Positions 14,137-38,843 of a DNA stretch of 64,000 nt are shown here, in pieces. The translations under genes were made by a program, and so were the position numbers. This DNA is from a virus (lineage: Duplodnaviria; Heunggongvirae; Uroviricota; Caudoviricetes): IMG/VR virus record IMGVR_UViG_3300029998_000014, one strand, 5' to 3'. The notes beneath the pieces were generated by a model. It ran no database searches and was not told where the DNA came from. It worked only from the letters and a program-made list of their open reading frames with translations. The number at the start of each line of letters is the position of its first letter. The stretch's first letter is position 1.

Positions 14137-14523
14137 ATGAAAATAGTATCAAAATGATTCACGTATGAAGAACTAGTTCATACAGATAAAAAGATAGTAA
14201 ATATTCCTAATGAAACACAAGTAGCTAATCTGCAAAGATTAGTTACAAATGTGTTAGATCCTTTGAGGGAATTGTATGGTAAACCAATTAAAATTAACAG
14301 CGGTTTTAGAAGTCCAGATGTAAATAAAGCGGTTGGTGGTGTAAGTACTTCTGGTCATTTATTAGGTACTTGTGCTGATTTAGATTGTGATGATAATGCT
14401 TTACTTTATAAGCTAATAAAAGAACATTTTGAGTTTAGACAGTTGATAGATGAACATAATTTTGCCTGAGTTCACATAGAATATAGAGAAGGTGATAATA
14501 AGAAACAACTAATAAAAACGTAA
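14137..14523 (+). CDS. Endolysin, peptidase M15 family
   Basis: LDPLRELYGKPIKINSGFRS...SGHLLGTCAD...A-W-VH zinc-peptidase motifs. TGA at codon 7 and in WVH. Confidence 0.85.
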
Positions 14524-15116
14524 TGATAGCAATAAAGAAATATTTAATTATACTGCTGGCTTCAATAGCTTTGATTTGTGGGGTTTTATTGTGGTTTTCA
14601 TATAACCACACAAAACAACTGAATGAGGAGCTAAAAACGGCTACCAATAACTATAAAGCATCAGTTAGAAAGAACGTAGTTTATCAATTTACTTTAGCTG
14701 ATTTGAAGGATAGTAAAGATTCATCTGATTTAAAAGTAAAAACGTTGATAGGTGAATTAAAACTTAAACCTAAAAAGGTAACTGAAACGGTTTTTATAAA
14801 TTCCCAAACACAAATAAAAGATACTGTAACATTAAAAGACAGTGTGTTTATTCGTGATTATGAAGCTAAAACTGGTGATGAATGGTACAGCCTAGATTTG
14901 AAATTTAAAGCACCAGATACGCTTAATGTAGATTTGAAAGTAAGAAATGAAGTAATAGCAATTACTTATGATAAGCGTGAAACAATAAAACCACCAAAGA
15001 AATTCTTTTTGTGAAGGTTGTTCCAGAAAAAACAAACAATACAGGTTATAGAAGTGAAAGAACTAAATCCTCATTCAGAGGTAAAAGACTTTCGATTTAT
15101 AAAGGTGTTAAAATAG
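14523..15116 (+). CDS. Spanin/Rz-like lysis protein (N-terminal TM, coiled coil)
   Basis: N-terminal hydrophobic helix. C-terminus KKFFL-W-RLFQKK...ELNPHS needs TGA read-through; ends TAG. Confidence 0.65.
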
Positions 15117-15137
15117 AAACAAATAAAAAAGTAAGTA

Positions 15138-15344
15138 ATGAATTTGAAAGAAACAAAATTGAACGTACAATTAGCAGTAGCTTGTGTATTGGTGTTGGCT
15201 GGGATATGCCTTTTATTTATGGGTTTTTGAGTAGTACCCATTGGAGTTATACATAACAGTATTTTAGTAGCCTTTGGGGAAATATGCACCTTTGCAGGTG
15301 CTTTGTTTGGGGTAGATTACCAATATAAAAAGATTGGTAAATAA
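15138..15344 (+). CDS. Small holin-like membrane protein (68 aa)
   Basis: Two TM segments, GF-W-VVPIGVIHNSILVAFGEICTFAGALFGVDY. Type common in Bacteroidales prophage lysis modules; missing from the track. Confidence 0.65.
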
Positions 15345-15361: not shown

Positions 15362-15392
15362 TTTGTTGATTACAGACTTTTTTTTACTTTTG
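15362..15392 (+). promoter_or_regulatory. Bacteroidota sigma-A promoter (TTTG-N19-TACTTTTG)
   Basis: Exact match to the -33/-7 consensus TTTG-N19-21-TAnnTTTG upstream of ATG 15411. Confidence 0.75.
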
Positions 15393-15410
15393 TCAAAAAA
15401 TAACAATATT

Positions 15411-16280
15411 ATGAGTGTAGTAGATCAGTTTGATATAGACGATTGTATAGAAGAAGAACCATTATTAGAATATGTATGTAATATGGTTTATACGCACCTT
15501 CCAGATGCAGATTTTGATGCTGAAGGAAATGGTATGTTAATGTGTTCATTGAATGGATTATATACTTTTGTGCAAAATTATAATCAAGGTACAATAAAAA
15601 CCAATTTTACTTATAATGATTATATGAATGGTGATGAAGAAGATAAAAATATACAACTCATATTAAAAGCGTTTAATATAGATTCTAAAAAGTTTTGGTA
15701 TTTTCTGTTATTTGCATTTGATTTTGCATATACTAATTGTGTAGGTGGTTTGGTTGCAAAAGAAAGTCCAGCTGGTCAAATGAAAAAATTTGTAAAAGCT
15801 ATAGATGATAATTCAACAGGTAAAATTAATGGTAATGATATTGAATTTAAACAGAAAGCTACTATTACGTTGAAAATTGGTAAAAAAAGTATTGTCATAG
15901 ATAATAATACAGCGATTTATTTAATGGCTTCGTTATGTGATGAGGAATTGAACGGTTTAAAAACTGGTAGTGTTTTAAATTCTGCTAAGCTTGAAGAAAG
16001 TAATTCTAAAGATGCACCAAATTATGCACGTATTTGTCTATTCACTAAAATAATGATTGACTTCTTTAAACAATATGTTGTAGATAAACCTGTTAAAAAT
16101 GGAGATAAAATAGCATCTTTGAATAAATTTACTTTTATTTCAAAATTAATATATCTTACAGGTATATATAATAATGAAGATTGGTTATATGGCGATGAAC
16201 ATTTAAAGTCCTGTTATAGAGAGTTTAAAACCAAAACACAAGACTTTAGATTTAATAAATATTCTGCTATGTGGCATTAA
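15411..16280 (+). CDS. Hypothetical protein (289 aa), code-11 readable
   Basis: ATG 15411 follows the promoter. Three Trp, all TGG. Confidence 0.75.
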   Translation: MSVVDQFDIDDCIEEEPLLEYVCNMVYTHLPDADFDAEGNGMLMCSLNGLYTFVQNYNQGTIKTNFTYNDYMNGDEEDKNIQLILKAFNIDSKKFWYFLLFAFDFAYTNCVGGLVAKESPAGQMKKFVKAIDDNSTGKINGNDIEFKQKATITLKIGKKSIVIDNNTAIYLMASLCDEELNGLKTGSVLNSAKLEESNSKDAPNYARICLFTKIMIDFFKQYVVDKPVKNGDKIASLNKFTFISKLIYLTGIYNNEDWLYGDEHLKSCYREFKTKTQDFRFNKYSAMWH

Positions 16281-16392
16281 TTAATGCGGGGTAGGTAAAT
16301 TAGACCATTTTAACCATTACTTTTGGGCTTTTCATATTGTCGCACCTTTGTATCGCAATCACAAACAAACTAAAACAGATTGCTTTATTTAA

Positions 16393-16686
16393 ATGAATAA
16401 AAATATTCAAAGTGCAGATGCTGCACAAGTAAAAAAAGTAGGTCAGAGAAAAGAATCAATAGATTCTTATGGTACTTCATTTGGTAAGTTATTAACATCT
16501 GACGAGCTACTAAAAAGGTGTGATGAACAACTTGAAAAGTGTGAGAAATGGACAGCTAATTTAACAGCATTGAAAGCTGAAAAAGAAGCCGAAATTAAAG
16601 CACAAAGAATTGAAGCATTAAAGACTTCTGTAAGTACTATGAGTGCAGAAGAGAAGGCAGAAATTATTAACCTTTTAAATGCTTAA
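16393..16686 (+). CDS. Hypothetical coiled-coil protein
   Basis: ORF track; no TGA. Confidence 0.65.
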   Translation: MNKNIQSADAAQVKKVGQRKESIDSYGTSFGKLLTSDELLKRCDEQLEKCEKWTANLTALKAEKEAEIKAQRIEALKTSVSTMSAEEKAEIINLLNA

Positions 16687-17302
16687 TATTATGGGTGAAA
16701 TTTTTGTAATTGGACAAGAAGATGTTTTTAAGAAAAACATCAAACAAATGGTTTTTAAAAATTTAGCTGAGGAATCAGATAAAATTAGAATGAGTGCAAT
16801 GATATCTGGTATGATAAGTAATACATACTTAACAAGTACTCATACATTTACACCTAAATTAGAAGCGTTATTACAACCTATTTTAGACGAAATAGCAAAG
16901 TCAGATGAGTTTATTAGTGCCTTAAAAGCTATTACTGGTAGAAATATAATGCCACCTGCATTATATAGTTCTTTAGCAGAGGGTGATATTTTCGACATTA
17001 ATTTAGTATTTGGTAAAGAAAACGACCAAACAGTACAAACAACAAACAACATTATGGAAGGTAAAACAATTAAAATAGTAGTTAGAGAAGTAGTAAGACG
17101 TGAAGCAGAACTGGTTATCGGTAAAGATATAACTGAACTTGATGCAAAGAAATTGTTGACAATCAGTCAAGATTGCGAAAGAGGTAGTAAAGAATATGAT
17201 CTAATTAATAAATATTTAGTTAGTAATTCTACTGATTGTAATGATATTGATCCAGAAGATTCAGAAGATTATACAAGTATTGATATTGAATTAGAAGACT
17301 AA
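16679..17302 (+). CDS. Hypothetical protein (acidic C-terminus)
   Basis: ORF track; overlaps the upstream stop and is followed by a terminator. Confidence 0.65.
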   Translation: MLNIMGEIFVIGQEDVFKKNIKQMVFKNLAEESDKIRMSAMISGMISNTYLTSTHTFTPKLEALLQPILDEIAKSDEFISALKAITGRNIMPPALYSSLAEGDIFDINLVFGKENDQTVQTTNNIMEGKTIKIVVREVVRREAELVIGKDITELDAKKLLTISQDCERGSKEYDLINKYLVSNSTDCNDIDPEDSEDYTSIDIELED

Positions 17303-17323
17303 TCAATAAATCAATCCAAATTT

Positions 17324-17356
17324 AAAAGGCTGTTACAATTATGTAGCAGCCTTTTT
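17324..17356. terminator. Bidirectional intrinsic terminator
   Basis: AAAAGGCTGTTACA-atta-TGTAGCAGCCTTTT hairpin between convergent genes. Confidence 0.75.
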
Positions 17357-17380
17357 AGTTTGTATTCAGTTGTGTGTTGA

Positions 17381-17875
17381 TTAGTCTTTATATGTTTTGT
17401 AGTTGATAATATTACTTACTGATGATAAACAAATATTAAACATATCTGCTATTTCCTTACGAGTATGTGTATTATTACTTATTCATTCTCTTATTTGATT
17501 AGCATCAGTATTAGTTAACTTTGATCGTCTTGATCTTTCCCCTTTAGGATTGATTGGTGTTAGTCCTGTTCTAAAGGCGTGTTTAATATTATCTATATTA
17601 CTTAGTCATTCTAAATTTTCAACTGTGTTATCTTCTTTAATTCCATTTATATGATTAACTGTTAGTGTTGTATCATTGGTTCATATAAACGCTTCTGCTA
17701 CTAATCTATGTACTCTCATAGATCTTTTGTGTCCGTTGCTTGAAAGATTAAGTACTCAGTAGCCGTCTTTATCTGGGTGCAACTTCATTATCTTTTGTGT
17801 TCTTAAATTAAATACTACACCTGTGTTACTTATGGTGTAGTTTGGATAGTTTGCAATTGTTTTTACTTCTCACAT
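17381..17875 (-). CDS. NUMOD4-HNH endonuclease (164 aa)
   Basis: YPNYTISNTG...RVHRLVAEAF...VNHINGIKEDNTVENLE-W. The canonical ENLEW Trp is TGA, and codon 2 is TGA. Confidence 0.85.
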
Positions 17876-18050
17876 ATTATTTTGTTATTGGTTAATAACC
17901 ACAAAGTTAACAAAATAATTACAACAAAAAACTATCATACACTTAATATTTAGAACATAGTTATTATAGTGTAACTAACATATTATTTTACAATAAATAT
18001 ATGTTAATATGCTGATTGTTAGATCAAAGCGTTGATTGTTAACGTCACAC

Positions 18051-18135
18051 CCCCATATGGGGTCAAAATGTTATTAACTAATGGAGTAAACCTCACCCCT
18101 CCCTCCCTTACACGAGAGGTATTTTTTCAAAAATC
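18051..18135 (+). other. Possible cos/packaging-site region
   Basis: 12-bp palindrome CCCCATATGGGG followed by a C-rich tract and TTTTTTCAAAAA in AT-rich intergenic DNA. Resembles, from memory, cos-adjacent sequence of Bacteroidales HK97-type prophages. Confidence 0.35.
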
Positions 18136-18169
18136 TTAAACCTCATTTACTACATAATTCACGTAAAAA

Positions 18170-18622
18170 CTAAATTTCAAGCTTAAATCTTATTCTAAAT
18201 TGATTATCATTATAATCTGAACTGACTATTTTAAACCTGCCTATTTCGGCTGTATTTTCAACGTGTTCACCAATACAAGCACAAACATCATAAGAACCTA
18301 TATACACCAACCTTAGTGTTTCACTAGCATCTTCTGGAAGTTTGCTTAAATCAACGCTAACTGGTACTTCTGAACGTGCTACTAATGCACTAGTAACAGA
18401 TAGATTTTGATCTATAATATTATTAACTTGTTTTTCAATTTCTATTATTTGTTCTTCTGTTGGTGTTTCATTTAAAAAGTAGTTGCATTTACTCTTTTTG
18501 CGCTCTATATGACTATTTTTAGATCTATCACAACCAAACATTTTAACCATTGTTTGGTTTAAAATATGCTCCACAGTGTGCATTGGTGGATATTCTTTCT
18601 TATTATGAGAATTTAATTCCAT
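18170..18622 (-). CDS. alaX: AlaX-like free-standing alanyl-tRNA editing protein (tRNA_SAD domain), Bacteroidales type
   Basis: Zinc-binding HxxxH (MHTVEHIL) and CxxxH (CACIGEHV) motifs, 150 aa. Confidence 0.8.
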   Translation of the reverse strand: MELNSHNKKEYPPMHTVEHILNQTMVKMFGCDRSKNSHIERKKSKCNYFLNETPTEEQIIEIEKQVNNIIDQNLSVTSALVARSEVPVSVDLSKLPEDASETLRLVYIGSYDVCACIGEHVENTAEIGRFKIVSSDYNDNQFRIRFKLEI

Positions 18623-18652
18623 TATAACCTACTGATTTACAATTAATTGATA

Positions 18653-18702
18653 ATACGTACAAAAACAATTGAACGCTTGCGGTCAATTTCTATTGTACGT
18701 AT
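18653..18702. other. Putative attP of the large serine recombinase
   Basis: 50-bp imperfect inverted repeat: ATACGTACAAaaacAATTGA-acgcTTgcgg-TCAATTtctaTTGTACGTAT. Symmetric about TT at 18677-18678, 44 bp upstream of the integrase. Confidence 0.65.
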
Positions 18703-18723
18703 CATAAAATAAATATATCTTTG
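18692..18723 (+). promoter_or_regulatory. Bacteroidota-type promoter of the integrase (-7 box TATCTTTG), overlapping the attP right arm
   Basis: TAnnTTTG at 18716-18723 and ATTG 20 nt upstream. Confidence 0.6.
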
Positions 18724-18746
18724 TACATATTTAAAGCACAAAGATA

Positions 18747-20468
18747 ATGAAAAAAGCAGCTATTTATTTACGAGTTTCTACTACAGATCAAAATTATGAA
18801 CGTCAAGAAGTAGAATTAAGATTGCTTGCAAACGGTTTTGGTTATGAAATAACTAAAGTGTTTGAGGAAAAAGCATCTGGTGTTTTAGATATGGACACCA
18901 GAGAGCAATTAACAGAAATGCGAAAATTAACTAGTGATGATGTTGATAAAATATTTGTTTGGGATATATCCAGATTAAGTAGAAAAGCATCAGATTTTAT
19001 TGCATTAGTAAATGAATTTGCAGAAAAAGGTGTTTGCATTCATTTTAAAGATAAGAATATTATTACTTTAGATGATGATGGTAAAATATCGGGTGTTGCA
19101 TCTATATATTTATATATGTTAGGTGTATTTGCTCAAATGGATGCTGAGAATTTAAAATCTAAATTCAAATCTGGTAAAGAAAATGCACTTAGAAAAGGTC
19201 ATAGTTATACTAATAATGCACCTTTTGGATATGATATTATTGATAAGTATTTATATGTTAATGAGTTAGAAGCAGAATCTGTAAAATTAGCATTTGATCT
19301 ATTTCATTCTGGTAAAGACACACAATATATAGCAGACATATTTAATTCAAAGAATATACCTTTAAAGAGTGGTAAAACAAATATTATCTGGGTAAAAGGC
19401 ACAATTTATCAAATGCTCAAAAATCCTGTATATTATGGCAAAGGTAAACTAGAATCAATAACTAAAAAAGCAACTGCAACTACACCTGCTGAAAAATCAG
19501 TAAGATATTTTGATGTTGATGCTATTATTGAAAAGAATTTGTTTGATGCAGTTCAAGAACGGTTTACAATTAATATAAATAGTGGTGATAAGAGTAAAGC
19601 AGTAGACCCCGCAATATTAAGAGGTATTTTAAAATGTGGTCAATGTAATAAATACTATGTTTTAGGTAATAATAATGGTGTAAGGGTCTATAAAGATGGT
19701 GATATTAGAGCCAATATAAACAACAAAGTAGGTTGTAAAAATGGTAGTTTCACTATTACAATGGCAGATAATTTAGTTTGGACTGCTATTAAAGGTATTT
19801 ATGAATATGATTCATTTAAAAAGAAGTGTGTAGATGATAAAGAACAATCTAAACTTGAATTGATAAAGAATGAAACTACATTAACTGAACTGAATAAAAA
19901 CATCACTGATTTAGATAATCAAATTTCTAAAGTTAATACTGGATATGCTAAAGGGTTCTATAATGATGCTGATGCTTTAGAACAAAAACATAGAATCACA
20001 ACCGAGAAAGACAGATTTAATAAAATTATCACAGAAATACAATCTAAAATCATTTTACTAAATGATAGAATTAATTCAGAATTTGAGTTTGATTATTTAA
20101 AAACTAGGGAACTAAGTTTAGAAGAAAAGAAACAGGTTTGTAATAGTTTAATTGAGGTGGTAAATGTATATAGATATACTGATTATATTAAACTGATGCA
20201 GGTAAAACTAAAAGTAGGGTTAACATTCAATATCCTTTTTAATAGTCAATACAAAGTAAATTCATATTGTATTATTGATGATGATGATGTAACATTTAAT
20301 AATATTTTTAATGCACCAGAAGAAGTTAGAGAGATTTTAAAGGGTAAAGATTTTACAGTTACTTCTTCAAATAATAAGCTGTTTAATGATGAAGTATTTG
20401 GTGAATATAGTTATACTGATATTTGGGAAATAATGAAGAAATACAACTATTTAAAGAAAATAGATTAA
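18747..20468 (+). CDS. Large serine recombinase (integrase)
   Basis: AAIYLRVST catalytic Ser motif, DISRLSR, recombinase domain, CGQC zinc ribbon, coiled coil; 573 aa. Four Trp, all TGG. Confidence 0.92.
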   Translation: MKKAAIYLRVSTTDQNYERQEVELRLLANGFGYEITKVFEEKASGVLDMDTREQLTEMRKLTSDDVDKIFVWDISRLSRKASDFIALVNEFAEKGVCIHFKDKNIITLDDDGKISGVASIYLYMLGVFAQMDAENLKSKFKSGKENALRKGHSYTNNAPFGYDIIDKYLYVNELEAESVKLAFDLFHSGKDTQYIADIFNSKNIPLKSGKTNIIWVKGTIYQMLKNPVYYGKGKLESITKKATATTPAEKSVRYFDVDAIIEKNLFDAVQERFTININSGDKSKAVDPAILRGILKCGQCNKYYVLGNNNGVRVYKDGDIRANINNKVGCKNGSFTITMADNLVWTAIKGIYEYDSFKKKCVDDKEQSKLELIKNETTLTELNKNITDLDNQISKVNTGYAKGFYNDADALEQKHRITTEKDRFNKIITEIQSKIILLNDRINSEFEFDYLKTRELSLEEKKQVCNSLIEVVNVYRYTDYIKLMQVKLKVGLTFNILFNSQYKVNSYCIIDDDDVTFNNIFNAPEEVREILKGKDFTVTSSNNKLFNDEVFGEYSYTDIWEIMKKYNYLKKID

Positions 20469-20473
20469 ACCAG

Positions 20474-20504
20474 AAAAAGCCTACTAGAAATTAGTAGGCT
20501 TTTT
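20474..20504 (+). terminator. Intrinsic terminator after integrase
   Basis: AAAAAGCCTACTA-gaaat-TAGTAGGCTTTTT. Confidence 0.8.
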
Positions 20505-20692
20505 ATTCATTCTAATTATACTGTAATTTCTGCTAGAACATCTCTAATTTAAACTATTCATAAAGTAGAATTTAATGTAGTACTAAGTAGATAGATTTGA
20601 TTACATATTTAACTATACATTTAACTATATATCTGTAAGTAAGTAGATTAGTTTTATTAGATTTGCATATAAACATTAAAATATGAAATAAT

Positions 20693-21049
20693 ATGAAACA
20701 AAATGAACAAGAATTATTAATAGAAATAAATCATTTATATAATGGTTTATTAGAAGAAAGTGATGGTTATAATTATAAACGTATCGTTAATACATTATCG
20801 GATAAAGTTTTTGAATTATATCGTGAATTTAGTCCTGATTATGTATCTTTTGATACTGTTTCTTCACTTTCACATACTTGTGGAAAAGAAGTTAGTTATG
20901 TTATATCTAGTTACACAAATTCAACCAGAAATAATTCATCTAAAAGAAGTAAGGAAATATTTATTGACTTTAGAGATGAAGTAAATCGGCAAATTCGTAT
21001 AGATTTAATTCATTTATTTCAAATAATCAAGGAGATTAAAGAAAACTAA
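20693..21049 (+). CDS. Hypothetical protein, moron-like (own promoter and terminator)
   Basis: 118 aa, TAGATTTG -7 boxes at about 20572 and 20658, no TGA. Confidence 0.65.
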   Translation: MKQNEQELLIEINHLYNGLLEESDGYNYKRIVNTLSDKVFELYREFSPDYVSFDTVSSLSHTCGKEVSYVISSYTNSTRNNSSKRSKEIFIDFRDEVNRQIRIDLIHLFQIIKEIKEN

Positions 21050-21071
21050 ATGTTTCACCACTACAAACCAA

Positions 21072-21103
21072 AAAAGCTACTTAGAATTAACTAAGTAGCT
21101 TTT
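21072..21103. terminator. Bidirectional intrinsic terminator
   Basis: AAAAGCTACTTAG-aattaa-CTAAGTAGCTTTT between convergent genes. Confidence 0.8.
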
Positions 21104-21106
21104 GTT

Positions 21107-21430
21107 TTATCTGGAATACCAGTCAAATTTATCATCATATTCAAATTCATAAACAAATCCGTATTCTTTGTATTTATTAATTATACTGGAATCTTTTAAA
21201 ACCTGTATTCATATTTTTTTGTAATCCAATTTTGATACAATATTCATAATTTCGCAGAAATAATTATTACCTCTATAATCTTCTTGAACATATACACCAG
21301 ATAATACTATTTCATCTGGATTAGTCAATGTATTAAATTCAAAAGAATAAACAACTTTATCTATATCCATTTTTATATAGTGAGTTGATTTGTGATAATC
21401 CCACCACTGAACATATTGTATTAATTCCAT
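21107..21430 (-). CDS. GNAT-family acetyltransferase-like protein (107 aa)
   Basis: VYVQEDYRGNNY motif-A-like segment. Reading through TGA 21209-21211 adds I-W-IQV...KYKEYGF (Y-x-x-x-GF motif). Confidence 0.55.
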
Positions 21431-21754
21431 TTATTCAACTATTGTACAATCTTTGTATTTATCCAGTGTCAACAGATAAGTTTCAGCATCAACTTTAGTA
21501 TTACCATCAGAAAAATGATTTGTAAAGTTTAGTACCGGTGTTTCTGTTTGCATTGGAAGTGCATTATCTGAGATATGAAGATATTCTGTTTGCATAGGTT
21601 GCAAACCTGCTTCTTTTGTTGCTTTATCTAGATATGTTTTTACATTGATATTAGCAGTTTTATTATCTCAGTCAATAGTAATATTGCTTACAACTATATA
21701 AGCTGATTCTGTTACTACTCCGTTTAAAAAGTCGATTCTTTTAGTTAGTGCCAT
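21431..21754 (-). CDS. Hypothetical protein (tail-accessory-like, 107 aa)
   Basis: MALTKRIDFLNGVVTESAYIVV..., one TGA, abuts the next gene. Confidence 0.55.
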
Positions 21755-21759
21755 TTTGT

Positions 21760-21948
21760 TTAGTTTTTAGTTGGTTGTTTAATTTTAGCTTCTTCAAATT
21801 CTTTTTGAATTTGTTCATCTTTTTGTTTTTGATATTGTTCATCTATTGTTTTATATAAATCATTATATTCATTAATAGGTTGTTCACCTAATAATTTTAA
21901 TAAATTATGTACTTTATGTCAAGTTAGTTCTAATTTAATATTTTCCAT
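21760..21948 (-). CDS. Small hypothetical protein (62 aa)
   Basis: MENIKLELT-W-HKVHNLL..., tightly packed with neighbours. Confidence 0.5.
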
Positions 21949-21953
21949 TTTGT

Positions 21954-22127
21954 TTATTCTTTACTTGGTTTTTGTAATGATTCTGGATATAATTGTATGT
22001 GTGCTTGTTTTCGCAGGTCATCAATCAGTTTAACAACTTGATTAAATGGTTGTGTACTTAATGCATTCAATATAATGTTTGCATCTTCAATACTTACTTT
22101 AAATTGTAATTCAGTTTGTTCTTTCAT
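21954..22127 (-). CDS. Small conserved phage protein (57 aa)
   Basis: ANIILNALSTQPFNQVVKLIDDLRKQA motif typical of small phage proteins. Confidence 0.55.
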   Translation of the reverse strand: MKEQTELQFKVSIEDANIILNALSTQPFNQVVKLIDDLRKQAHIQLYPESLQKPSKE

Positions 22128-22129
22128 AG

Positions 22130-22636
22130 TTAGTTTAATTTGGTCAATTTGGTAATTAATTCTTTGAAGTCTATAACTTCATATTTGTTATCTTTTAATA
22201 TATAAGTTATTCCCATTTCTGGGGTTAATAATAATGAACTTTTATTGTGAAAGTTATTTCTATTAAATTCTGTAGTTGCTGGACAATTTAGATCTTTGTG
22301 TACTTTGGTAATATTGTTTATATCTCAAGTCATAATAATAATTTCACCGTTAACCCTAAATAGGTTAATATATCTGTTGGGTTTACCAACTAAGAAGTTA
22401 TATTTAGTCATCTCTAATTGTCAACCTTCATTACTGAATTTAATAAAATTTTCTAGCTCAACATATTTGTTCATACGTTCTTTTACTTCAAAAAATACAT
22501 TTTGTTCTTTGTATTTGAGAAACAAATCATAATGTGCAAATCTATCTTTACTTTCTCATACTTGAATATCTCCAAATTGTTGTTTTATCAAATCAGATAC
22601 TAATTTAAGTGATTCTTTTTCTCTATTATTTCTCAT
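22130..22636 (-). CDS. PD-(D/E)XK nuclease-like protein (168 aa)
   Basis: HYDLF...FFEVKER motif; three TGA read as Trp. Confidence 0.6.
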
Positions 22637-22871
22637 CTTGTCAAGGTCTTTTAATTGCTTTTGTGCGAGGTTTTACATTTAAAATAGTTTCTAGCTCCGT
22701 TAATCGTTTATCAAAATCGGCAAACGTAGCTTCTATTTCAGCACACTTTGCATCTCATTTGGATTCCATTTCATCCAATTTAATTTCATTGTTTAAATTA
22801 CTTACAGATAAAAGTAATGCTGCATTTTTGATAAATCTATCAAATTCTTGTTCTGTCATAAGTTCGTTCAT
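22626..22871 (-). CDS. Hypothetical coiled-coil protein (81 aa)
   Basis: Open with TGA=Trp, overlaps the next start. Confidence 0.5.
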
Positions 22872-23076
22872 AGTTGTTTAGTTTTTAGTGTTGAGAATTA
22901 CAAGTTGTAAAAAGATTCCAAAGAGTAAAATGATAATTGTATTCATAGTTGTTTGATTTTATAGGTTTTTTTTGAAGGTGCAAAGCACCATATAGTAGGT
23001 ATTATAGTTAGGTATTATAGTATAGGGGTCTAGTGGAAATTCACATAGGTGGAAAATCGAAGATTTTTTAAATTGC

Positions 23077-23829
23077 TTATACAACAATTTCTTCATCATT
23101 TTTAATTTCTAATTTGGGGAAATTTGCAACTCCAGCTTCTATTGCTAAAATATATTGCTTAGGGAACAAAACATTATTTCAGTTAGTATTATCAATAATA
23201 TTTGAAATGAAATTATTTGGATATAATTGTTTAAGTTCTTCTGATTTTTGTTTCACAAATTCCAATTCTTCAATTCTAATTTTTTCCTTTTCAGTAATTA
23301 CATTAATAAAATGCTCACCTTGTATTTCATAGCCTTTTTTCAACTTCTTTAGATGTCCTAATACAATTAGTTCTTTTGTATATTTTCCCACCGTAGAAGG
23401 AGCGACATTCAATTCTTGGGCTATTTTTGAATCGGTAAATTCACACCTTCTAGTATTATTAAGACATAATCCAAATAGTTGTATTAAAAAGCCTTTGTGA
23501 GCAGGTTTTAAATCCAGATCAATTATTTCATTACCTATCATTCTAAAATTTACAGTGTCTTTTTTCATATAGTATTTGTTTCTTTTTATATGTGAAGTTT
23601 CAAAGTATGATTCAATTTCAATAAATCCAGATTTTCTAAGTCTACTTACAAAATCCTTAATAGTATTCTCTGATGTATCTTTGGTTAATCACATTATTTG
23701 TTTAAATGTTGAATCCGTAAATGAGTTATTTTCTTTCGTTGGGGTAAAAGTTAAACAAGTATATCTAAATGTATCCTCAAAGTTTAAGTATTTCCCAATA
23801 TTATTTGATATTGTAGTGTAAGTTTTCAT
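23077..23829 (-). CDS. Winged-helix protein, probable replication initiator (250 aa)
   Basis: Extends track ORF 23179-23568 both ways across two TGA. HTH KIAQELNVAPSTVGKYTKELIVLGHL. Confidence 0.6.
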
Positions 23830-23965
23830 AAGTTTGGCAACCTGTATTTTCAATTTTTACTATTTCATTATCTTTTATTTTTGCTCGTAGAACTGAGCCG
23901 GACAAACCACATTTTACTCTAATTTCTTTTTGTGTTTCGTAAATTTCGTTTTTGTATTTTCACAT
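23801..23965 (-). CDS. Small DNA-binding-like protein (54 aa)
   Basis: ATG-TGA start (M-W-KYKNEIYETQKEI), overlaps the rep start. Confidence 0.45.
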
Positions 23966-26277: not shown

Positions 26278-26279
26278 CA

Positions 26280-29671: not shown

Positions 29672-30864
29672 TGAAGAACACACTAGAGTTATTAGATGAT
29701 AAAAATCTATTAAAAGTAAGAGCAACAGAATTAATTTCTAATGCTGAAAAAGAAACTAGAAAACTTAACGATTTAGAAAGTATTCAATTTGATGAAATTA
29801 CTAAAGAGTTAGCAACTATTGATGCTGAGATCAGAAAGATCGAAGAAGATAATAAAAGAAACCTTAATAAAGTAACAACAAAACAAAAACAAACTATGGA
29901 AAATTTTTCATTATTGAAAGCTATTAATGATGTAGCTAACAACCGTCAACTAGACGAAAGAGCATTAGAAATTACTAACGCAGGGCAAGCTGAATTTCGT
30001 AAAGCTGGACAAAACACACAAGGTCAAATTGTATTACCAATGGAAACCAGAGCAACAATTTCTGCAACAGTAGCAACTGCTGGACAAGAAGTAGTAGCAG
30101 AAGATAAACTTGGAATTTTAGAACCTCTTAGAGCTAATCTAGTAATGGTTCAAGCTGGTGCAACATATATGACTGGTTTAACTGGTACTGTATCTATCCC
30201 TGCTTATTCTGGATCAAATGTATTGTGAGCAGGTGAAACTGCTGGTGCATCAGATGGTGCTGGTTCATTCACAGAAGTAACTTTAGAACCAAAAAGAATC
30301 ACTGCATTTTTAGATATTTCTAAACAGTTCTTGATTCAAGATTCAATTAGTGCTGAATCAATGCTTAAATCTGATATTGTAAAAGCAATTTCAAACAAAT
30401 TAGAATCGACTGTATTAGGTTCTGTAGCTGGTTCTACAACTCAACCTTCTGGACTTTTATATGGTACTCCTGTTGATACAGAAGATGTAAGTTATTTAGA
30501 AGTTGTAGCTATGGAAACAATATTAGAATCTGCTAATGTAACTGGAAAGAAAACGTTTATCGTTTCACCATCTGCAAAAGGTAAATTTAAATCAACTCTT
30601 AAAGCAGCAGGTGTTGCAGCAGGTTATTTAATGGAAGGAACAGAAATTAACGGCTATAATACTTTGTCAACTTCTGCTGTACCTTCTAAAGGTGTAATCT
30701 TTGGATGTTTTGAAGATTATGTTATTGGACAATGGGGTGGAATTGACTTGACAGTTGATCCTTACACACAAGCAGCTAATGGTAAAGTTCGTTTAGTAAT
30801 CAATGCTTATTTTGATGCTAAACCTCGTAGAAATGAATCTTTTATAACTGCTATTTTAAAATAG
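29671..30864 (+). CDS. HK97-fold major capsid protein (397 aa)
   Basis: Delta-domain coiled coil, VL-W-AGE (TGA), LEPKRITAFLDISKQFL, GQWGGIDLTVDPY. Confidence 0.9.
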
Positions 30865-30874: not shown

Positions 30875-31183
30875 ATGTATTTAACAATCGAACAAGCTAA
30901 AAAACACTTGAATCTGGAAGCAGAATTTATTGAAGATGATATTTATATCACTTCACTAATTCAAGTGGCAGAAGCAACTGTTGAATTACATATAAATCAA
31001 AAATTAGTTGATGTTGCTGCAATTAATGGTGAGGTTCTACCCTTGCCATTATTGCACGCAATGCTTTTAATGATTGGTAATTTATATGCAAACAGGGAAA
31101 TGATAAGTTTTGCAAGTAAAACTACAGAAATACCTTTTAACTATAGATACCTTTTAGATTTTTACAAAAACTATTCAAACTAA
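30875..31183 (+). CDS. Head-tail connector (gp6-like)
   Basis: AKKHLN...DDIYITSLI...AMLLMIGNLYANRE. Confidence 0.85.
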   Translation: MYLTIEQAKKHLNLEAEFIEDDIYITSLIQVAEATVELHINQKLVDVAAINGEVLPLPLLHAMLLMIGNLYANREMISFASKTTEIPFNYRYLLDFYKNYSN

Positions 31184-31189
31184 ATTTAT

Positions 31190-31510
31190 ATGATACCAGC
31201 GGGAACACTGTTATATAGTTTAATATTTAAAGAAAATCAAACTGTACAATCTGAATCGGGAGCAGTTACAAAACACTTAACTGAACTACTTAAATGCAGA
31301 GCAGCTAAAGTTAAACAATCTGGTAATTACTCATTAGATTCTAAAGAATTATTTCATAGTAATACAATAGCTTTTAAGATTAGATATAATAAACTATTAT
31401 CTGAATTATTAATTGTTGAATATGAAAAGAATGATTATAAAATAAACTCTTTTGATAGAAATCTATTTGATAATTCAATTGATATTATACTAGAAAAAAT
31501 TAATAAATAA
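31190..31510 (+). CDS. Head closure / head-tail adaptor protein
   Basis: AGTL start, FKIRY motif, synteny. Confidence 0.75.
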   Translation: MIPAGTLLYSLIFKENQTVQSESGAVTKHLTELLKCRAAKVKQSGNYSLDSKELFHSNTIAFKIRYNKLLSELLIVEYEKNDYKINSFDRNLFDNSIDIILEKINK

Positions 31511-31511
31511 A

Positions 31512-31949
31512 ATGGAAATTCAAACTACATTAATTGATTATGATCGAGTTTACAAAGCTATTGATAATCTAAAGGATTTTCAAAAAGATAAAGTTGTAGG
31601 TCAAGGTTTAAAAGATGCAACAGGATTGTTTATTAATGCAGGTAAACAGAATCTAAGAGATAGAATGAAATCCAAAAAAGGTGATTCTGGTAATTTATTG
31701 AAGTCTTTTAAAAACAAACTAAAACGTTCAAGTTTAGGAGCAATTGCTGGATTCAATCAATTAGGTATGCACGCACATCTTTTAGATATGGGTACACAAG
31801 TAAGAACTACTAAAAGTGGAGCAAACAGGGGGAAAGTAGAAGGTAATAGTTTCTGAAAAGATGCTATTGAATTAAACGAAACCGCTGCAATTGAAAAAGT
31901 TTATAGTGGTATTGAAAGAGCAATTACAAACATAATTAATAAAGGGTAA
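31512..31949 (+). CDS. HK97 gp10-like neck protein
   Basis: HAHLLDMGT motif, extends past F-W (TGA 31854). Confidence 0.7.
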
Positions 31950-31950
31950 G

Positions 31951-32343
31951 ATGATTACAAAAGCATTTACAAAATTTTCAATTACAACAGAATTAAGAAA
32001 ATTAATTGTTGCAGATAGTGGTCTAACTAATTGAGTAGGTACTAATGTATTTCCAATAGTTGCACCAGAAGGAACAGAAGGCGATACTATAATTTATTAT
32101 AGGGAAAAGTACGCTAAACAACACACTCAATTTGGAATTTATGAGGAAAAATGTAATGTTACTTTTATAATTGTTTCAGAAGATTATGACAGAAGTATTG
32201 CAATAACAGAAGCCTTAAATGATTTAATTGAAGGTATTCACCAAAATAAAGACAACTACAATTATGAATGTAGATTAGTAGATTCAATTGAGGATTTAAT
32301 AGATAAAAAATATATTCAGACTTTACAGTTTGAAATCAAATAA
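31951..32343 (+). CDS. Tail completion/terminator protein
   Basis: VFPIVAPEGT motif, synteny; missing from the track because of TGA. Confidence 0.65.
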
Positions 32344-32365
32344 CAAACAATAAAACAAAATAAAA

Positions 32366-32809
32366 ATGTCAACATCATATAATTCAAATACCGATTTAGT
32401 AAAAGGTAATAACTTAATGTTATTTGTAGGCTCAACACCTATTGCATTTGCAAAAACTTGTGATTTATCAATTAGTGCAGCATCAATTGATACAACTAAT
32501 AAAATGTCAGGAAATTGAAAAGCTAGTTTAGCTGGACAAATTTCTTATACAATTTCATCAGATTTTTTATATACAACTGTAGCGGGTGATACTTCATTCG
32601 ATACTCTTTTAGCTAGTCAAATAGCAGGTAGTTCTGTTAGTTTTACAATTGGACTTGCAGATCCTGCAACTTTTGCATTAACTGGAACAGGTCTTTATAC
32701 AGGAACAGCACACATTACATCTTTAACTATGAAAGCAGAAGATAATGCAATAGTATCTTGTTCTGTATCTTTAGAAGGTTCTGGTGCTTTGGTTAAAGTG
32801 TCAGCGTAA
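32366..32809 (+). CDS. Major tail (tube) protein, TP901-1-like
   Basis: KGNNLML...IDTTNKMSGN-W-K...YTGTAHITSL...SLEGSGAL. Confidence 0.8.
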
Positions 32810-32824
32810 TAAGATCAAAAATTT

Positions 32825-32850
32825 AAAAGGCGGTGATTATACCGCCTTTT
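32825..32850 (+). terminator. Intrinsic terminator
   Basis: AAAAGGCGGT-gattat-ACCGCCTTTT. Confidence 0.75.
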
Positions 32851-32871
32851 GTTTTAAATTCAAATTGATAT

Positions 32872-33510
32872 ATGAATATAAAATTAAACATTAAAAGTAT
32901 CATCAAATTTGAACAGTTTACTAATAAATCATTCAATGAAATAGACTATACAAATACAGATGATTTATTGAAATTGATGTACTGTATAGTACTTTCAAAC
33001 AATCCAGATGTATTTACTTATGAAGAGTTTTTAGAGCTAATAAAGAGTAAGAAGATAAGCAAAACCATTTCGGATAAATTAAGCACAGAAATTAAATTGA
33101 TAGATTTATTTGCAAATAAAGAAGTAAAAGAGGTTACAGAAGAACAACCAGAAAGAGAAGTAATATTTATAAAAGATATAGCTGCAATACTAGTAGTGAA
33201 TGTTGGATTGGATATAAATTTTGTAATGAATGAAATGAGTATAAACGATATTTCTTTATATATGGAAGCCTATAATAAGAGCGTGAAGCAACAAATGGAA
33301 AGTAGCAGACTATGAACTTATTTATCTGTTATACCTCACATAGACACCTCAAAAATAAATAGTCCTTCTAAATTTTATCCTCTACCTTGGGAACTTGAAA
33401 AACAATTAGAACAAGATAAAACAGAGTTCAAAATTATGGCTGAAGAACTTCCAGATATGTTTAAAGCTGGTGCAGATCTAATTGATAAAATAAATAAACA
33501 AAAACAATAA
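32872..33510 (+). CDS. Tail assembly chaperone
   Basis: Lies between tail tube and tape measure; SRL-W-T...PLPWE C-terminus after TGA 33313. Confidence 0.65.
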
Positions 33511-33514
33511 TAGT

Positions 33515-36500
33515 ATGGCAAATAATTTAAGTTTTGGGGTAGCAGTAAATCTACTAACAGAAAATTTTAAAAGAGGTCAAGCACAAATTCAAAACGGTTT
33601 TAGAGAAATAAAATCTACTGCTTTACAAATGGCTGGTGTACTTGGTGCAGGGCTAGGTTTTGAGCATATTATAAAGGAAATGATAACTGTTGCTAGAGAA
33701 TCAGCAGCAGTTAACAAGGCTTTAAAAGTGGCTTCTGGTGGATGAGAAGAATACGGAAAGAATCAAAAATATATAATTGAAACTAGTGAGAAGTTTGGTT
33801 TAAGTATAAACGAAATGACTGGTGCATTTGCAAAGTTTACAGCATCTGCAAAAACTAGTAATATCCCTTTAAAAGATCAGCAAACATTATTCACCGGATT
33901 AAATGCTGCATTGTTAGCAACAGGTGCAAGCGGTGATAAAAAAGCAGAAGTTTTTGATGCTATGTCAAAGATGATGCAAAAGGGTACAATTCAACTCAAA
34001 CCCTTAATTGCTGGGCTTGGTTCTGCTTTACCAGAATCACTTTCAATTATGGCTAAAGCTATGGGTGTATCAGTTGAAAAACTGAGAGATATGGCTAAAC
34101 ACGGTCAATTATTAGCTAGTGATGTATTTCCTAAATTTGGTGCAGAACTAGAAAAAGCATTTGGTAATGTTGACACCAATACAATAGGTGGTGCTTTAAA
34201 TAGAATTGGTAACAGTTTTGAAGAACTAACAGCTAAATTAAATGTGGGTAACATTTATAAAACTATAGTAAATGAAACTTCTGAGGTTTTTAAATGGATA
34301 ACCGAACACTTTAAATTAGTTGGTGATACTATTACAAATATAGCAGTAACTATTATTGTAGGTAAAGCTTTTGGAGCTATTAAAAAAGGTTACACATCAA
34401 TATCAACAGCAGCTACTACTAGTTACGTTAAACAGGCTGTAGAAGCAGAAAAAAGTGCAGTTGTACAGGAATTAGCAAATAGTAATTTATCTAAGAAATC
34501 TCAAAAAAGATATTTAGATGAATCACTTGCAGCAGCAAAATCTTATGCTGAACAAGAAGCAGCAGTAAACAAATTTAGTTTAACCTCTAATTTCGCTTTT
34601 AAAACTGTAGGTTTAGCAATTAAAACTGCTTTTATGTCATTCTTACCAATGATATTATTTAGTGGTGCAATGGCAATATATCAACACTTTTCAAATCTTG
34701 CAGAGAAAGCTAAAGAACTAAAAGCAATTTGAACAGATTATAGATCTGGTTTAAAAAATGCAGTTGAAACAAACAGTCAATCAAACGAGATTAAAAACTC
34801 TTTGAAGATTGTAAATGACACTAATACTTCATTAAAAGAGCGTCAAACTGCACTAAAAACAATAAATTCTATTTTAGGTACTAATTATCAATTTGATAAA
34901 AACGGCTTAAAAATCAACGGTGATATTAACGTAAAAATCAAAGAGCGTTTAGACCTCTTAGATAAACAAAGCAGGTATCAATATTTACTAAATAAACAGA
35001 ATCCTAATGATGATAGAATTGCCGAAACTCAAAGTAAGATTGATATAATTAATAATCAGTTAGGAAAAGATCTTAATAGTGGCAAAGGTGTAGATAGTGG
35101 ATTAGTAAAAGAAAGAGCTGGTTATTTAGATGAACTAACACCTCTATTAAAAGTTAGAGATGATATAGCTAGAGAAAAGAACAAATTAAAATCTGAACTT
35201 GGTAAAAATACAGGTGAAACAACCGATACTAATTTAAGTGGTTTAGGTGCTGGTTCTGGTGAAGATACTGAAGTACAAAAACATCAAAAAGAAATTGATT
35301 CTGTACAAGATGCTTATGTAAAAGAAACTCAAAAACTAAATAATGAATTAGCTAACGGTGTAATATCACAAAAGAAATACAATGAATTATTTGATAAGCA
35401 CGTAGAAGATGGTAAAAAGAATTACGGCGGAATCTTAACGAAAGATGAAGCTAAAACTAATGTTATTTATGGACAAATTCAAGCCTATAAACCATTATCC
35501 TCTACTGATGATAAAATTGAAACAGCTAAAGAAGATTATCTTAAAAAACTAACTGAACAAGACGGATATTTAAAAGATGGTATAATCACACAAGATGAAT
35601 ATACTAATGCTATGTCTGGTATTGTTGATGAAACATTAAGAACTATTTCAACAATCAAAGGAGTAAATTTTGCGACTAATGATTTAGTGAAAATAGTAAA
35701 ACAGAAACAAGCAGATTTAGCTAAAAAAGATTTTGCTTTTGTACTACCTCAGAGTAATCCAATAGATCATACATTTGATTATAAAAAGTCAGATGTTGAA
35801 AAACAAGAGGATAAAAATCAGCAAAATGACGATTTTATAAAAGCCATTGAAAAAGAATTTAGTGATAAAGGTGTAAAGAATATTGAAAAACAAATAGCTG
35901 ATGCGGGTGGTGATCTAAGTAAACTAAAAGCACAGTTTCACGGTCAAGCAGATGATTTAATTGAATCACTAAATAAAGCATTATTAAATGCACCAGACTT
36001 GTCCAAAGCATTAAAACTAATGCAGGTTAAGAAGGATATAAAAGACCTACAGAAACAATTAAATAGTGGTATATACGAGGGTATAAAAAATATTGCTGGT
36101 AGTGCTAAAAATATGTATGAAGGATTTAAAGCATTAACTGATACACTTAATAATGTAGATGCTTCTGGATTTGAAAAGTTTCTAGCAATATGAGATGCAT
36201 TAACTAATACGCTGGATGGTATAATGTCAGTTGTAAAAACTATTAAAGACCTTACAGCAGTAACCACTGCTTTGACAGCAGCAAAACAAACACAAGCAGG
36301 AATTGAAGCGGGAACAGCAGCAGCTAAAATTGCAACCAATGTTGCAGAAACAGCTTCTTATACTGGACTTATGGCAGCAGAAACAGCAGCAGCTTATGCT
36401 TTTATTCCCTTTGTAGGTGAAGGTTTAGCATTGGCTCAAATTGGAGTAATGCAAGGTGCTATATTAGCTTCAAGTATTCCAAAGTTTGCAAACGGTGGTA

Positions 36501-36727
36501 TTGTACAAGGTGGTTCTATTTCTGGTGATAAAATACTAGCTAGAGTAAATGCTGGTGAAATGATATTAAATCAAGGTCAACAAAGTACACTATTTGCTCT
36601 TTTAAATGGTCAAGGTGGTATAAATTGAACTACAACAAATAATAGTGAAGTAAAATTTATTATTGAGGGAAAGAATTTAAAAGGCGTTCTAACTAACTAT
36701 GATAATATAAAAAGCAAAGCAAAGTAA
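33515..36727 (+). CDS. Tape measure protein (1070 aa)
   Basis: Joins four in-frame track ORFs. Tape-measure domain and PKFANGGIV...GDKILARVNAGEMILN C-terminus. Confidence 0.88.
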
Positions 36728-36728
36728 T

Positions 36729-38843
36729 ATGATTTACACAGGACAATTTAAAAATATAAGTAACACTTTATATCAAGTGGATATAAATGTGAATGATGGT
36801 AATAGTGGAACATCTGAGATTATTTTCTCAGATGAACCATTTAAAATCGAATTAAATACAAATAGTACAATTTACGAACCGTTGAAATTATCAAATGCAA
36901 CTTGTACAATTATATCTGATAGTTACAATTTCAACCTTTATTCAGCAACTGCACAAGGTACTAAAATGACTTTGAAAGATGTTGATAATAATCTGATTAA
37001 ATGAGTTGGTTACTTGACACCAAACATATATACACAAGGCTTTGAACAACATTATGAAAGTATTGAACTTGAAGCAATAGATGGTTTGAGTACATTAGAC
37101 AATTACAAATTTGAAACGGTTGATCTGGTAAACAGAAAGATAAAAAGCTTTGAAGATTTATTGATTCATATCATCAAAAAGTGTAATTGCTATTCTAAAA
37201 TATACGTGAATGAAAACAACTATTTACCGGGCTTTGAAGATCAAAAAATCATAGATAAATTACTCGTAGCTGAGCAAAATTTCTTTGATGATAACGAAGC
37301 AATAACATACAAAGAAGTACTAACACAGCTTCTTCAATTCCTAAACTATACAATTGTAGCAGATGGTGATGAGGTTTATATATTGAACTATGATTATATA
37401 AAAGGTGGATTTGTAAACTATCATACCTATACTACTGCAAACAATTGGTTGAATTATTCAACTGGCTACACAACATTAAGTAATACAGTAGATGTTACAA
37501 ATGAAAGTTTTAAATCGAATGGTGCTAGTATTGAATTAGCTGAGGTTTATAATCAAGTAAGCATTAAAACCAGTGTAAGCACAAATGATAGTTTGATACC
37601 AGAGTTTTTTTCTGATGATGATCTAACCAACATTACAAAAGTAACAGGAACAACAAACTGGTTTTCTTCTATTCCTAAAACTTATGGAAGTAAGAACTAT
37701 GTGTTTAAATATTTCAAAAATGATAAATACAAAACATATAATAAAACTGGTGGTACTTGGTCTGAATTAACCGAACTTGATTATGATACAATATCAACTA
37801 AAGAGGGTGCATCCTTTGTAAGAATGGCAAACTATGAAAATAATGTAGCATTAAGTTCTTCTGTTAGTTTCTCTGATTATGTTTGTCTTTATAGGTCTGG
37901 ATATGTTGCACCAACTGGCGCATTACCTTTACAAACTTGGCTTGACTGTACAAATAATGTTGTACTGAAATATTCATCAAGCAATGAGGGTAGTTATTTT
38001 TATGATGATTACTATTTAATAATTAGTGGCTCTGCTTATTGGGATTCAGCGGTTAATGTAGCTTATATAGATGAAAGTAAAAAAGCATCTACAGGTGATT
38101 ATTATTTATCAACTTACGTATTATTATATGCAAAATTAAAGATCGGAAATAAATACTGGAACGGTTATCAAAAGTATTGAACTAATATTGAAATGACTTT
38201 CCCAATTAAGTTTGAATACAAAGATGGACATCTTTATAACAACTGGAAAAACATATTAAACGAAGTTGATACAACAGCATTTATAAATGAAGTTGGTAAT
38301 AAAATAACCATTAAAAAGGCAGATATGTTATTCGGTGATATTGAGTTTTCATTATATGAACCATCTGAAATATATAAGGGTGGTACTTGTGGTGCTGTAT
38401 GATTGAAAGATTTTGACATCAAGTTAGTTAAACCTACAAGTGAGAAAAAAGCGGAAACAGATACAGAATATAAAAACGTAATCAATACAGCGTTTGTAAA
38501 TGAATTTTCTGATATGAATTTAAAAGTATGTAGTGATACAAATAAAGGATTGAATTATTCATCTGTTATTCAAAAAATAGGTACAGATTATACATACAAT
38601 CAAAGTATCAAAACAAAGGCTTTAGGAATTGACCAGAAACAAGAATACAACATTATCCAGTCTTATGTGAATCAGTATTCAACACCAGCCAAAAAACTAA
38701 ATATAACGCTGGCTAATATATTTAAACCGTATTCATTACTAACAATAAATAGTATTTTTCCAACTGAAAAATTTATTGTTGATGGTATGAGTATAGATAT
38801 AAAAAATGATACTAATCTATTGAATATAGTATCAAAGAAATAA
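36729..38843 (+). CDS. Tail/baseplate hub protein (704 aa)
   Basis: Joins four in-frame ORFs; position between tape measure and fibre. Confidence 0.7.

Follow-up and report, generated by a model that had tools for sequence, protein, structure and literature searches.

The stretch of DNA analysed here, called the window throughout, is a 64,000-nt sequence from peat (IMG/VR record IMGVR_UViG_3300029998_000014, Caudoviricetes) in which genes of a crAss-like phage lie on both sides of a second phage, a siphophage. This siphophage is a complete, free-standing temperate phage of the HK97 type with a genome of 28,661 bp. It uses TGA as a tryptophan codon in its early, packaging, head, tail and lysis genes, while its integrase and cargo genes are free of TGA, and no transfer RNA (tRNA) that could read these codons was found in it. 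We infer, at a probability of roughly 40%, that the TGA codons are decoded in trans, by the tRNA(UCA) of the crAss-like phage or by that of sibling siphophages.

TGA as a tryptophan codon across the window

Read in genetic code 4 (TGA = Trp), the open reading frames (ORFs) of the window contain 141 in-frame TGA codons compared with 78 TGG, and each ORF is terminated by TAA or TAG. An earlier note on this DNA, made from the sequence alone, had described the recoding of the siphophage. It extends over the whole 64-kb window, the crAss-like flanks included, and the window is AT-rich over its full length, with a G+C content (GC) of ~29%. The same note had placed TGA at conserved tryptophan positions, and protein alignments to relatives that use the standard code (code 11) agree with it: the columns holding a siphophage TGA contain W in 680 cases, Y in 107 and F in 76, and the five TGA positions of TerL all lie opposite W (362 of 370 aligned cases). 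Because the TGA columns fall on W, TGA stands for Trp and not Gly, and code 25 (TGA = Gly) was ruled out on these alignments.

When read in code 4, all genes of the siphophage are intact. Two relatives were compared with it, the 36-kb record IMGVR_UViG_3300031722_000097 (hereafter G001), rated 98% complete and with a TerL 96% identical to that of the window, and a 36-kb recoded, tRNA-less prophage in a Paludibacter metagenome-assembled genome (MAG), with a TerL identity of 91%. TGA positions are kept among the three phages, with 17-19 in common and few swaps between TGA and TGG, and the compared genes contain zero TAA or TAG breaks. The base 3′ of an in-frame TGA is T in 14% of cases in the siphophage (n = 49), whereas in this phage T follows 36% of TGG codons and 22% of codons overall; after TGA in the crAss part it is found in 26%. 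This weak trend might reflect avoidance of strong contexts for release factor 2 (RF2).

Search for suppressor tRNAs in the two phages and their relatives

ARAGORN at default settings returned zero tRNAs from the 64-kb window; under relaxed settings it gave no tRNA with a stop anticodon, and at -ps80 only noise, with UCA absent. Permissive Rfam scans of 12000-44000 and 20400-26000 produced zero tRNA-like matches at E<=10, and no homologue of the tRNAs of G001 or Bacteroides neonati described below is present in the window. The gap at 25637-25900, checked for a hidden tRNA, is unstructured, while a candidate at 17303-17380 was rejected as a tRNA, the element being probably a terminator hairpin. 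Both modes of ARAGORN and the Rfam models are therefore in accord with the earlier statement that no tRNA-like fold was seen in the intergenic gaps, and the suppressor tRNA(UCA), which is frequent but not universal among code-4 phages, was not found in the 28.66-kb unit.

A canonical tRNA(UCA), with A1-U72 and G73, lies ~11.1 kb upstream of the window on contigs that are 100% identical to window positions 1-6894, and is present also in a 172-kb crAss-like relative. A1-U72 and G73 are identity elements of tRNA-Trp. The recoded crAss-like phage, named in the earlier note as a plausible source of UGA suppression, does carry a candidate gene for it.

A second tRNA(UCA) is found among the siblings of the siphophage. 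In G001, a 71-nt tRNA (L083:10041-10111, minus strand) scores 45.9 bits with the Rfam tRNA model and is missed by default ARAGORN. Canonical numbering gives it the anticodon UCA along with A1-U72 and G73, but its anticodon stem contains G.A and C.C mismatches; at -ps90 ARAGORN calls it as 'tca'. This cryptic tRNA is identical in four IMG/VR contigs (L083, L001, L002, L235), and siblings with a TerL identity of 90-96% bear it in the early region; neither the window nor the Paludibacter prophage has it. Peat runs X18, X3 and X5 contain G001-type junction sequences, and the loose ends at 17984/18056, 17037 and 22144 are module variants of the G001 type, not host DNA. Non-canonical suppressors such as this one can thus escape default tRNA finders. 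A natural contrast is set up within one clade (TerL 90-96%), in which some genomes have the cryptic tRNA(UCA) while others lack it, yet are just as intact and as abundant.

The prophage of Bacteroides neonati MS4 (NZ_HG726020.1) has its own 94-nt tRNA(UCA), which has a long variable arm and lies at L100:9493-9586, where the early operon is followed by TerS. This prophage is partly recoded, several of its core genes holding a single in-frame TGA each, and its TerL is interrupted after residue 285 by a ~1.6-kb insert, possibly an intron or intein.

Relatives of the siphophage TerL are abundant in IMG/VR, where the closest (80-96% identity, ~29-30% GC) are TGA-recoded and those at 75-76% identity (34-36% GC) use code 11. 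Among species-representative genomes, those of Bacteroides congonensis, Parabacteroides segnis and Parabacteroides gordonii harbour the code-11 relatives as prophages, and more distant relatives occur in Phocaeicola, Tannerella, Muribaculaceae and Bacteroidales genomes, as prophages in Phocaeicola and Muribaculaceae. On the TerL tree, the distribution of recoding requires at least 3-4 changes of state, whether gains or losses. Half-recoded prophages are found in the Bacteroidaceae MAG chromosomes OY764215.1 and OY762866.2, where TerL has 4-5 TGA among 8 Trp codons; their serine integrases are TGA-free, and a suppressor was not found within 10 kb of TerL. Relatives have additional genes inserted in the space that separates TerS from the early operon (G001:13079-14503, G006:C3:408025-410377); these are free or nearly free of TGA, and their products, of 374-474 aa, have a membrane segment at the N terminus. 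These genes are absent from the window and may be defence or exclusion genes expressed by the prophage. A match to group II intron domains D1-D4 (48.6 bits) was also seen at the contig end of a recoded relative, G002 (L086:15590-15654).

The host

Judging by its closest genome-borne relative, the Paludibacter prophage, the siphophage probably has a standard-code, Paludibacter-like member of the Bacteroidales as its host. The prophage has 29-31% GC, compared with 40-43% in its flanks, and these flanks read in code 11 without interruption (104 TGG, zero in-frame TGA), one of their ORFs ending in TGA. The MAG encodes prfB (RF2) at 452 bits and 41 distinct tRNAs, among which Trp is served by a canonical tRNA(CCA) only, with a 5-bp anticodon stem. 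The CUUCAAA anticodon loop, of the opal-suppressor type, occurs at no tRNA site in this MAG, nor in G009 (a single chromosome) or G010 (multi-contig), two Bacteroidaceae genomes with half-recoded relatives. The presence of prfB, the single kind of tRNA-Trp and the TGG-only flanks support the code-11 Bacteroidota host proposed earlier; the alternative offered with it, a host that natively uses code 4, gains no support from this MAG and is very unlikely.

Gene organization and code use of the siphophage

The siphophage comprises the following features in the window.

12740-39455: siphophage-specific DNA, 26,716 bp, which with one copy of the repeat R (see below) makes up the 28,661-bp genome
12740-13083, plus strand: C-terminal end of the siphophage fibre, with an S74 intramolecular chaperone domain
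13085-14119, plus strand: 344-aa protein without assigned function, 3′ of the fibre; 0 TGA, 5 TGG
14068-14523, plus strand: Peptidase_M15_3 endolysin (E=7.5e-16); 2 in-frame TGA
15363-17302, plus strand: cargo operon of three TGA-free genes (305, 97 and 207 aa) without assigned function
17303-17380, no strand assigned: strong hairpin (z=-7.6), probably a bidirectional terminator
17381-17875, minus strand: NUMOD4/HNH_3 homing-type endonuclease; 5 TGA, 0 TGG
18170-18622, minus strand: AlaX-like protein with a tRNA_SAD domain (E=1.2e-10); zero Trp codons
18747-20468, plus strand: large serine recombinase (integrase); 0 TGA, 4 TGG
20693-21049, plus strand: 118-aa TGA-free ORF, 3′ of the integrase
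21107-25636, minus strand: early/replication operon; 14 TGA, 3 TGG, with at least one TGA in every gene
23077-23853, within the early operon: DnaD-like or replication-initiator protein
24263-25040, within the early operon: two HNH proteins
25813-30864, plus strand: packaging and head genes (Pfam)
from 25813, plus strand: TerS
26280-27893, plus strand: TerL; 5 TGA
from 27904, plus strand: portal
from 29120, plus strand: S78 protease
from 29671, plus strand: HK97-type capsid
30875-38843, plus strand: head-tail and tail genes
33515-36727, plus strand: tape-measure protein
36729-38843, plus strand: distal tail protein, 704 aa
38871-39455, plus strand: N-terminal part of the siphophage fibre

The set expected of a temperate HK97-type phage is present by Pfam (TerS, TerL, portal, S78 protease, HK97 capsid, tape measure and integrase). 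With full packaging, head, tail and lysis genes, the element is not a satellite in the usual sense; the earlier note had called it a possible genetic-code satellite. The extent given there, 28.7 kb at 14137-38843, was right in length, which equals the 28,661-bp spacing of the two copies of R, but too narrow in its coordinates, since the unit consists of 12740-39455 plus one R. The true fibre gene of the siphophage is formed by 38871-39455, R and 12740-13083 and encodes 957 aa; a relative, G004, matches window positions 12742-13156. When the GenBank phage collection was searched with the element, the sole match covered 1 kb at 73%.

Code use differs by module. The integrase, the AlaX-like protein, the cargo operon at 15363-17302 and the ORF at 20693-21049 together hold 0 TGA and 8 TGG, bearing out the earlier claim that these genes are readable in code 11, while the early, packaging, head, tail, lysis and HNH genes hold 44 TGA and 12 TGG (Fisher p=2.8e-5; the integrase/cargo block was taken for this count as 15363-21049 minus the HNH gene). 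The lysogeny integrases of G001, G002 and the Paludibacter prophage likewise have zero internal stops, and the same integrase protein as in the window is found on stand-alone siphophage contigs. Searches of PHROGs, Pfam and the ESM Atlas returned no function for the TGA-free cargo genes. The ORF at 20693-21049 is possibly a lysogeny regulator.

Repeat R and the apparent nesting of the two phages

In the window, the siphophage is joined to the crAss-like phage on either side by a copy of the repeat R.

10795-12739, plus strand: R copy 1, a fibre cassette of 1,945 bp, joining the N-terminal part of the crAss fibre to the C-terminal part of the siphophage fibre
39456-41400, plus strand: R copy 2, joining the N-terminal part of the siphophage fibre to the C-terminal part of the crAss fibre (41401-41675)

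The copies are direct repeats, 100% identical and both inside fibre genes. R contains 7 TGG and 0 TGA, and because it is TGG-only, unlike the backbone of either phage, it looks like a recently imported receptor-binding cassette; a 696-bp portion of R is 96% identical in the Paludibacter prophage. The earlier note had observed that the two phages have a fibre in common, which here takes the form of an identical cassette of 1,945 bp. This identity shows that both phages have at some time been inside one cell. A search for other recently exchanged DNA, beyond R, found none. An R variant lacking 158 nt (window 11553-11712) is present in three of four peat runs, and contig L209 of the Joint Genome Institute (JGI) has a diverged version of that part.

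The apparent nesting of the siphophage in the crAss-like genome is most likely a loop made by the assembler through R, and physical nesting, as drawn in the window, is not borne out by independent assemblies or by depth. A siphophage-only JGI contig measures 26,970 nt, which equals 28,661 - 1,945 + 2x127, with both ends lying 127 nt into R, and the crAss contig from the same assembly also ends 127 nt into R. MEGAHIT crAss contigs end 141 nt into R; one of 174,982 nt was seen in four samples, and another measures 75,960 nt. In another MEGAHIT assembly, from the European Nucleotide Archive, a siphophage contig of 28,926 nt crosses R without a break and encodes the whole 957-aa fibre, whose N- and C-terminal parts are both those of the siphophage. 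The ratio of k-mer depth between siphophage-specific DNA and one crAss-specific bin is ~1.1, 0.6, 2.4 and 5.6 in four peat runs. In the complete crAss relatives, of 172-178 kb, the capsid gene is preceded by 9 kb without any siphophage gene. Furthermore, the junctions are a homology repeat within fibre genes and not att sites, with the integrase located 6 kb away. Since contigs break at R, separate siphophage contigs exist and depth ratios vary from 0.6 to 5.6, the two phages are to be regarded as separate replicons. As a more general caution, a circular genome with a repeat common to another genome can be written into the latter by an assembler.

Occurrence in peat

Near-identical siphophage sequence was found in at least 24 peat runs, and both phages were present in all four runs examined by k-mer depth. 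Nine runs listed for the siphophage are not listed for the crAss capsid region, but X3 and X5 among them do contain crAss-specific DNA, and the run lists therefore cannot show absence. By IMG/VR sample numbers, a single sample is common to both phages (3300030685), which is uninformative.

How the TGA codons may be read

Decoding in trans, the reading that we prefer, would work as follows. In a naive lysogen that has RF2 and tRNA-Trp(CCA) only, the lytic programme would be untranslatable, with the integrase/cargo block legible in code 11 and the growth genes legible only where TGA means Trp. Another recoded phage in the same cell would supply a UGA-reading tRNA-Trp and so make the lytic programme translatable, and candidate donors occur in the same samples, namely the crAss-like phage with its tRNA(UCA) and sibling siphophages with the cryptic one. 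It is a further and more doubtful step to regard the genetic code as a lock, opened for the lytic programme only by tRNA-Trp(UCA) from a sibling or from the unrelated crAss-like phage. In that case the suppressor tRNA would be a shared good among the phages of one host, on which the siphophage free-rides or through which it senses superinfection.

Several observations weigh against decoding in trans. The host of the siphophage is deduced from a relative. No host junction appeared at the integrase neighbourhood in the 23 longest contigs, all of which carry the same phage DNA there, and attP was not located. Depth of the siphophage reaches 50-85 in X18, where it is 5.6x that of the crAss-specific bin. 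The siphophage thus appears to replicate efficiently, something not required of a phage wholly dependent on another; because it appears to replicate, its TGA codons must be read in nature. The depths of the two phages do not track one another over the four runs. All samples are peat runs of 2019-2020, possibly from one campaign, making co-occurrence weak evidence. Lastly, a suppressor is detectable in only 35% of code-4 phage genomes (Borges et al., 10.1101/2021.08.26.457843), and there may be a general decoding mechanism of another kind.

A rival explanation, which we consider unlikely though deserving of real weight, is that the siphophage reassigns UGA on its own by means other than a tRNA that can be recognised. 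The agent could be an early or cargo protein encoded without TGA, which would inactivate RF2 or change tRNA-Trp(CCA) or the tryptophanyl-tRNA synthetase (TrpRS) such that UGA is read efficiently as a near-cognate codon; it could also be an RNA so atypical that current models miss it. Changes made to the tRNAs or translation factors of the host have been suggested for the majority of code-4 phages, which are without a detectable suppressor (Borges et al., 10.1101/2021.08.26.457843). Here, the genes at 13085-14119, 15363-17302 and 20693-21049, together with the AlaX-like gene, are TGA-free and could be made in code 11, yet no family match points toward a release-factor or tRNA-modifying function, and the cargo genes are not conserved in recoded relatives, with G001 and the Paludibacter prophage having short pieces only. 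The G001 tRNA shows that odd suppressors slip past default ARAGORN; relaxed ARAGORN and the permissive model scans were nonetheless empty for the siphophage. The lower frequency of T after in-frame TGA (14%, against 36% after TGG), a weak signal at n=49 that is absent from the crAss part, and the abundance of an apparently non-integrated siphophage would also fit self-decoding. An improbable alternative is that the functional phages of this lineage all bear the cryptic tRNA(UCA), and that the form without a tRNA arose by recombination with loss of the suppressor module, surviving as a defective or declining prophage or episome, or as a path drawn through a mixed population. The siblings at 90-96% TerL identity do have the tRNA in their early region, where branch points occur in all four runs, with G001-type branches in X18. 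However, the window-type early module (contig 22115-23343) stands at full depth in X18 (68, compared with 57-73 in its flanks), every gene is intact in code 4, the same tRNA-less genome was recovered from two further assemblies, and the Paludibacter prophage is an independent, intact, tRNA-less case with conserved TGA positions.

The two remaining explanations carry less weight. Were the siphophage joined to the crAss-like phage in a real cointegrate, formed by homologous recombination in the fibre gene, it would be decoded in cis by the crAss tRNA(UCA). The window contig does run through both copies of R, recombination over 1.9 kb of identity is expected in co-infection, contigs of >200 kb with these genes exist in one or two assemblies, and a rare true cointegrate would give the same four junction types in short reads as an assembly loop. 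Even so, we hold it to be quite improbable, given that other assemblies break exactly k nt into R, that the siphophage assembles alone with an intact fibre, that the depth ratios range from 0.6 to 5.6 and not about 1, that complete crAss relatives of 172-178 kb lack siphophage genes in the 9 kb before the capsid gene, and that homology-repeat junctions stand in place of att sites, 6 kb from the integrase. To the idea that the host itself reads UGA as Trp, by a native code 4 or a chromosomal suppressor, we give next to no credence. The recoding of the whole AT-rich window, at 29% GC, would suit such a host, but the Paludibacter host has RF2, tRNA-Trp(CCA) only, TGG-only flanks and an ORF ended by TGA; a CUUCAAA-loop tRNA is absent from the three host genomes searched; the crAss-like phage bears its own tRNA(UCA); and a code-4 host would leave unexplained why the integrase block is TGA-free and the fibre cassette TGG-only.

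Relation to known systems

Phage satellites such as P4, phage-inducible chromosomal islands (PICIs) and PICI-like elements (PLEs) are without most virion genes and use the structural proteins of a helper. If decoding in trans holds, the siphophage resembles them in that its lytic cycle would need a function from another phage in the cell. Unlike these satellites, it has the full virion set and would borrow a tRNA only, and a helper-specific induction system was not found. If true, decoding in trans would make one phage depend on another in a new way.

Sensing of co-infecting phages through suppressor tRNAs has already been proposed, and the TAG-recoded prophages Garnet (Prevotella) and Topaz (Oscillospiraceae), of ~24 kb, were described from standard-code hosts (Borges et al., 10.1101/2021.08.26.457843). 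The siphophage is like them a small temperate tailed phage, of a probably standard-code host, with the recoded stop in structural and lysis genes and not in the integrase, and with a recoded region lower in GC than the host. It differs in that TGA=Trp replaces TAG=Gln, the host lineage is probably Paludibacter-like, the habitat is peat and not the gut, and a suppressor was not found in it, while close siblings have a cryptic one. The code-4 phages Agate and Jade and the beta/zeta crAss-like phages (10.1101/2021.08.26.457843; PMC7886860) also use TGA=Trp in late genes in standard-code hosts, and a suppressor tRNA(UCA) is their usual decoder, as in the crAss-like phage of the window. Those phages are large, mostly virulent and often equipped with their own tRNA sets; the siphophage is 28.7 kb, temperate and has zero tRNAs, and its early and replication genes are recoded as well. 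New here are a TGA-type temperate family in the Bacteroidales whose recoding state has changed repeatedly, a polymorphism in the presence or absence of a cryptic suppressor within one clade, and direct evidence that DNA was recently exchanged with a crAss-like phage that bears a suppressor. The missing decoder of the majority of recoded phages is named as an open problem by Borges et al. (10.1101/2021.08.26.457843). The family is accessible at the bench, with code-11 members in cultured Bacteroides and Parabacteroides and a partly recoded one in the isolate Bacteroides neonati MS4.

The crAss-like phage and homing endonucleases

The crAss-like phage occupies the two ends of the window.

1-10794, plus strand: left part, 42 TGA and 10 TGG, including a homing endonuclease and a 702-aa protein
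3079-5274, plus strand: portal-like protein (Pfam)
6843-8321, plus strand: Fib_succ_major protein
8344-10794, plus strand: N-terminal part of the crAss fibre
41401-64000, plus strand: right part, colinear with the complete 172-178-kb relatives, including the fibre C-terminal end, a Fib_succ_major protein, a lysozyme, a ring-protein homologue and a 1,419-aa protein
44768-46198, plus strand: Crass_capsid (Pfam)

Fib_succ_major and S74 fibre proteins together span 6843-13083 (Pfam). Homing-type endonucleases (NUMOD/HNH/GIY-YIG) are found in both phages, at 17381-17875, 5-772, 47219-48112 and 52877-53821, and all use TGA for Trp; between those of the siphophage and those of the crAss-like phage no recent exchange was seen. 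About 4.5 kb upstream of the window, the crAss-like contig encodes Cpn60 and Cpn10 (GroEL/GroES-like) chaperonins (L211:10001-11803), and the phage also encodes PhoH and a PD-(D/E)XK protein. The 178-kb crAss-like relative G007 has a tRNA with the anticodon CUA, of the amber-suppressor type (L179:2602-2676), and its structural region is TGA-recoded, not TAG-recoded.

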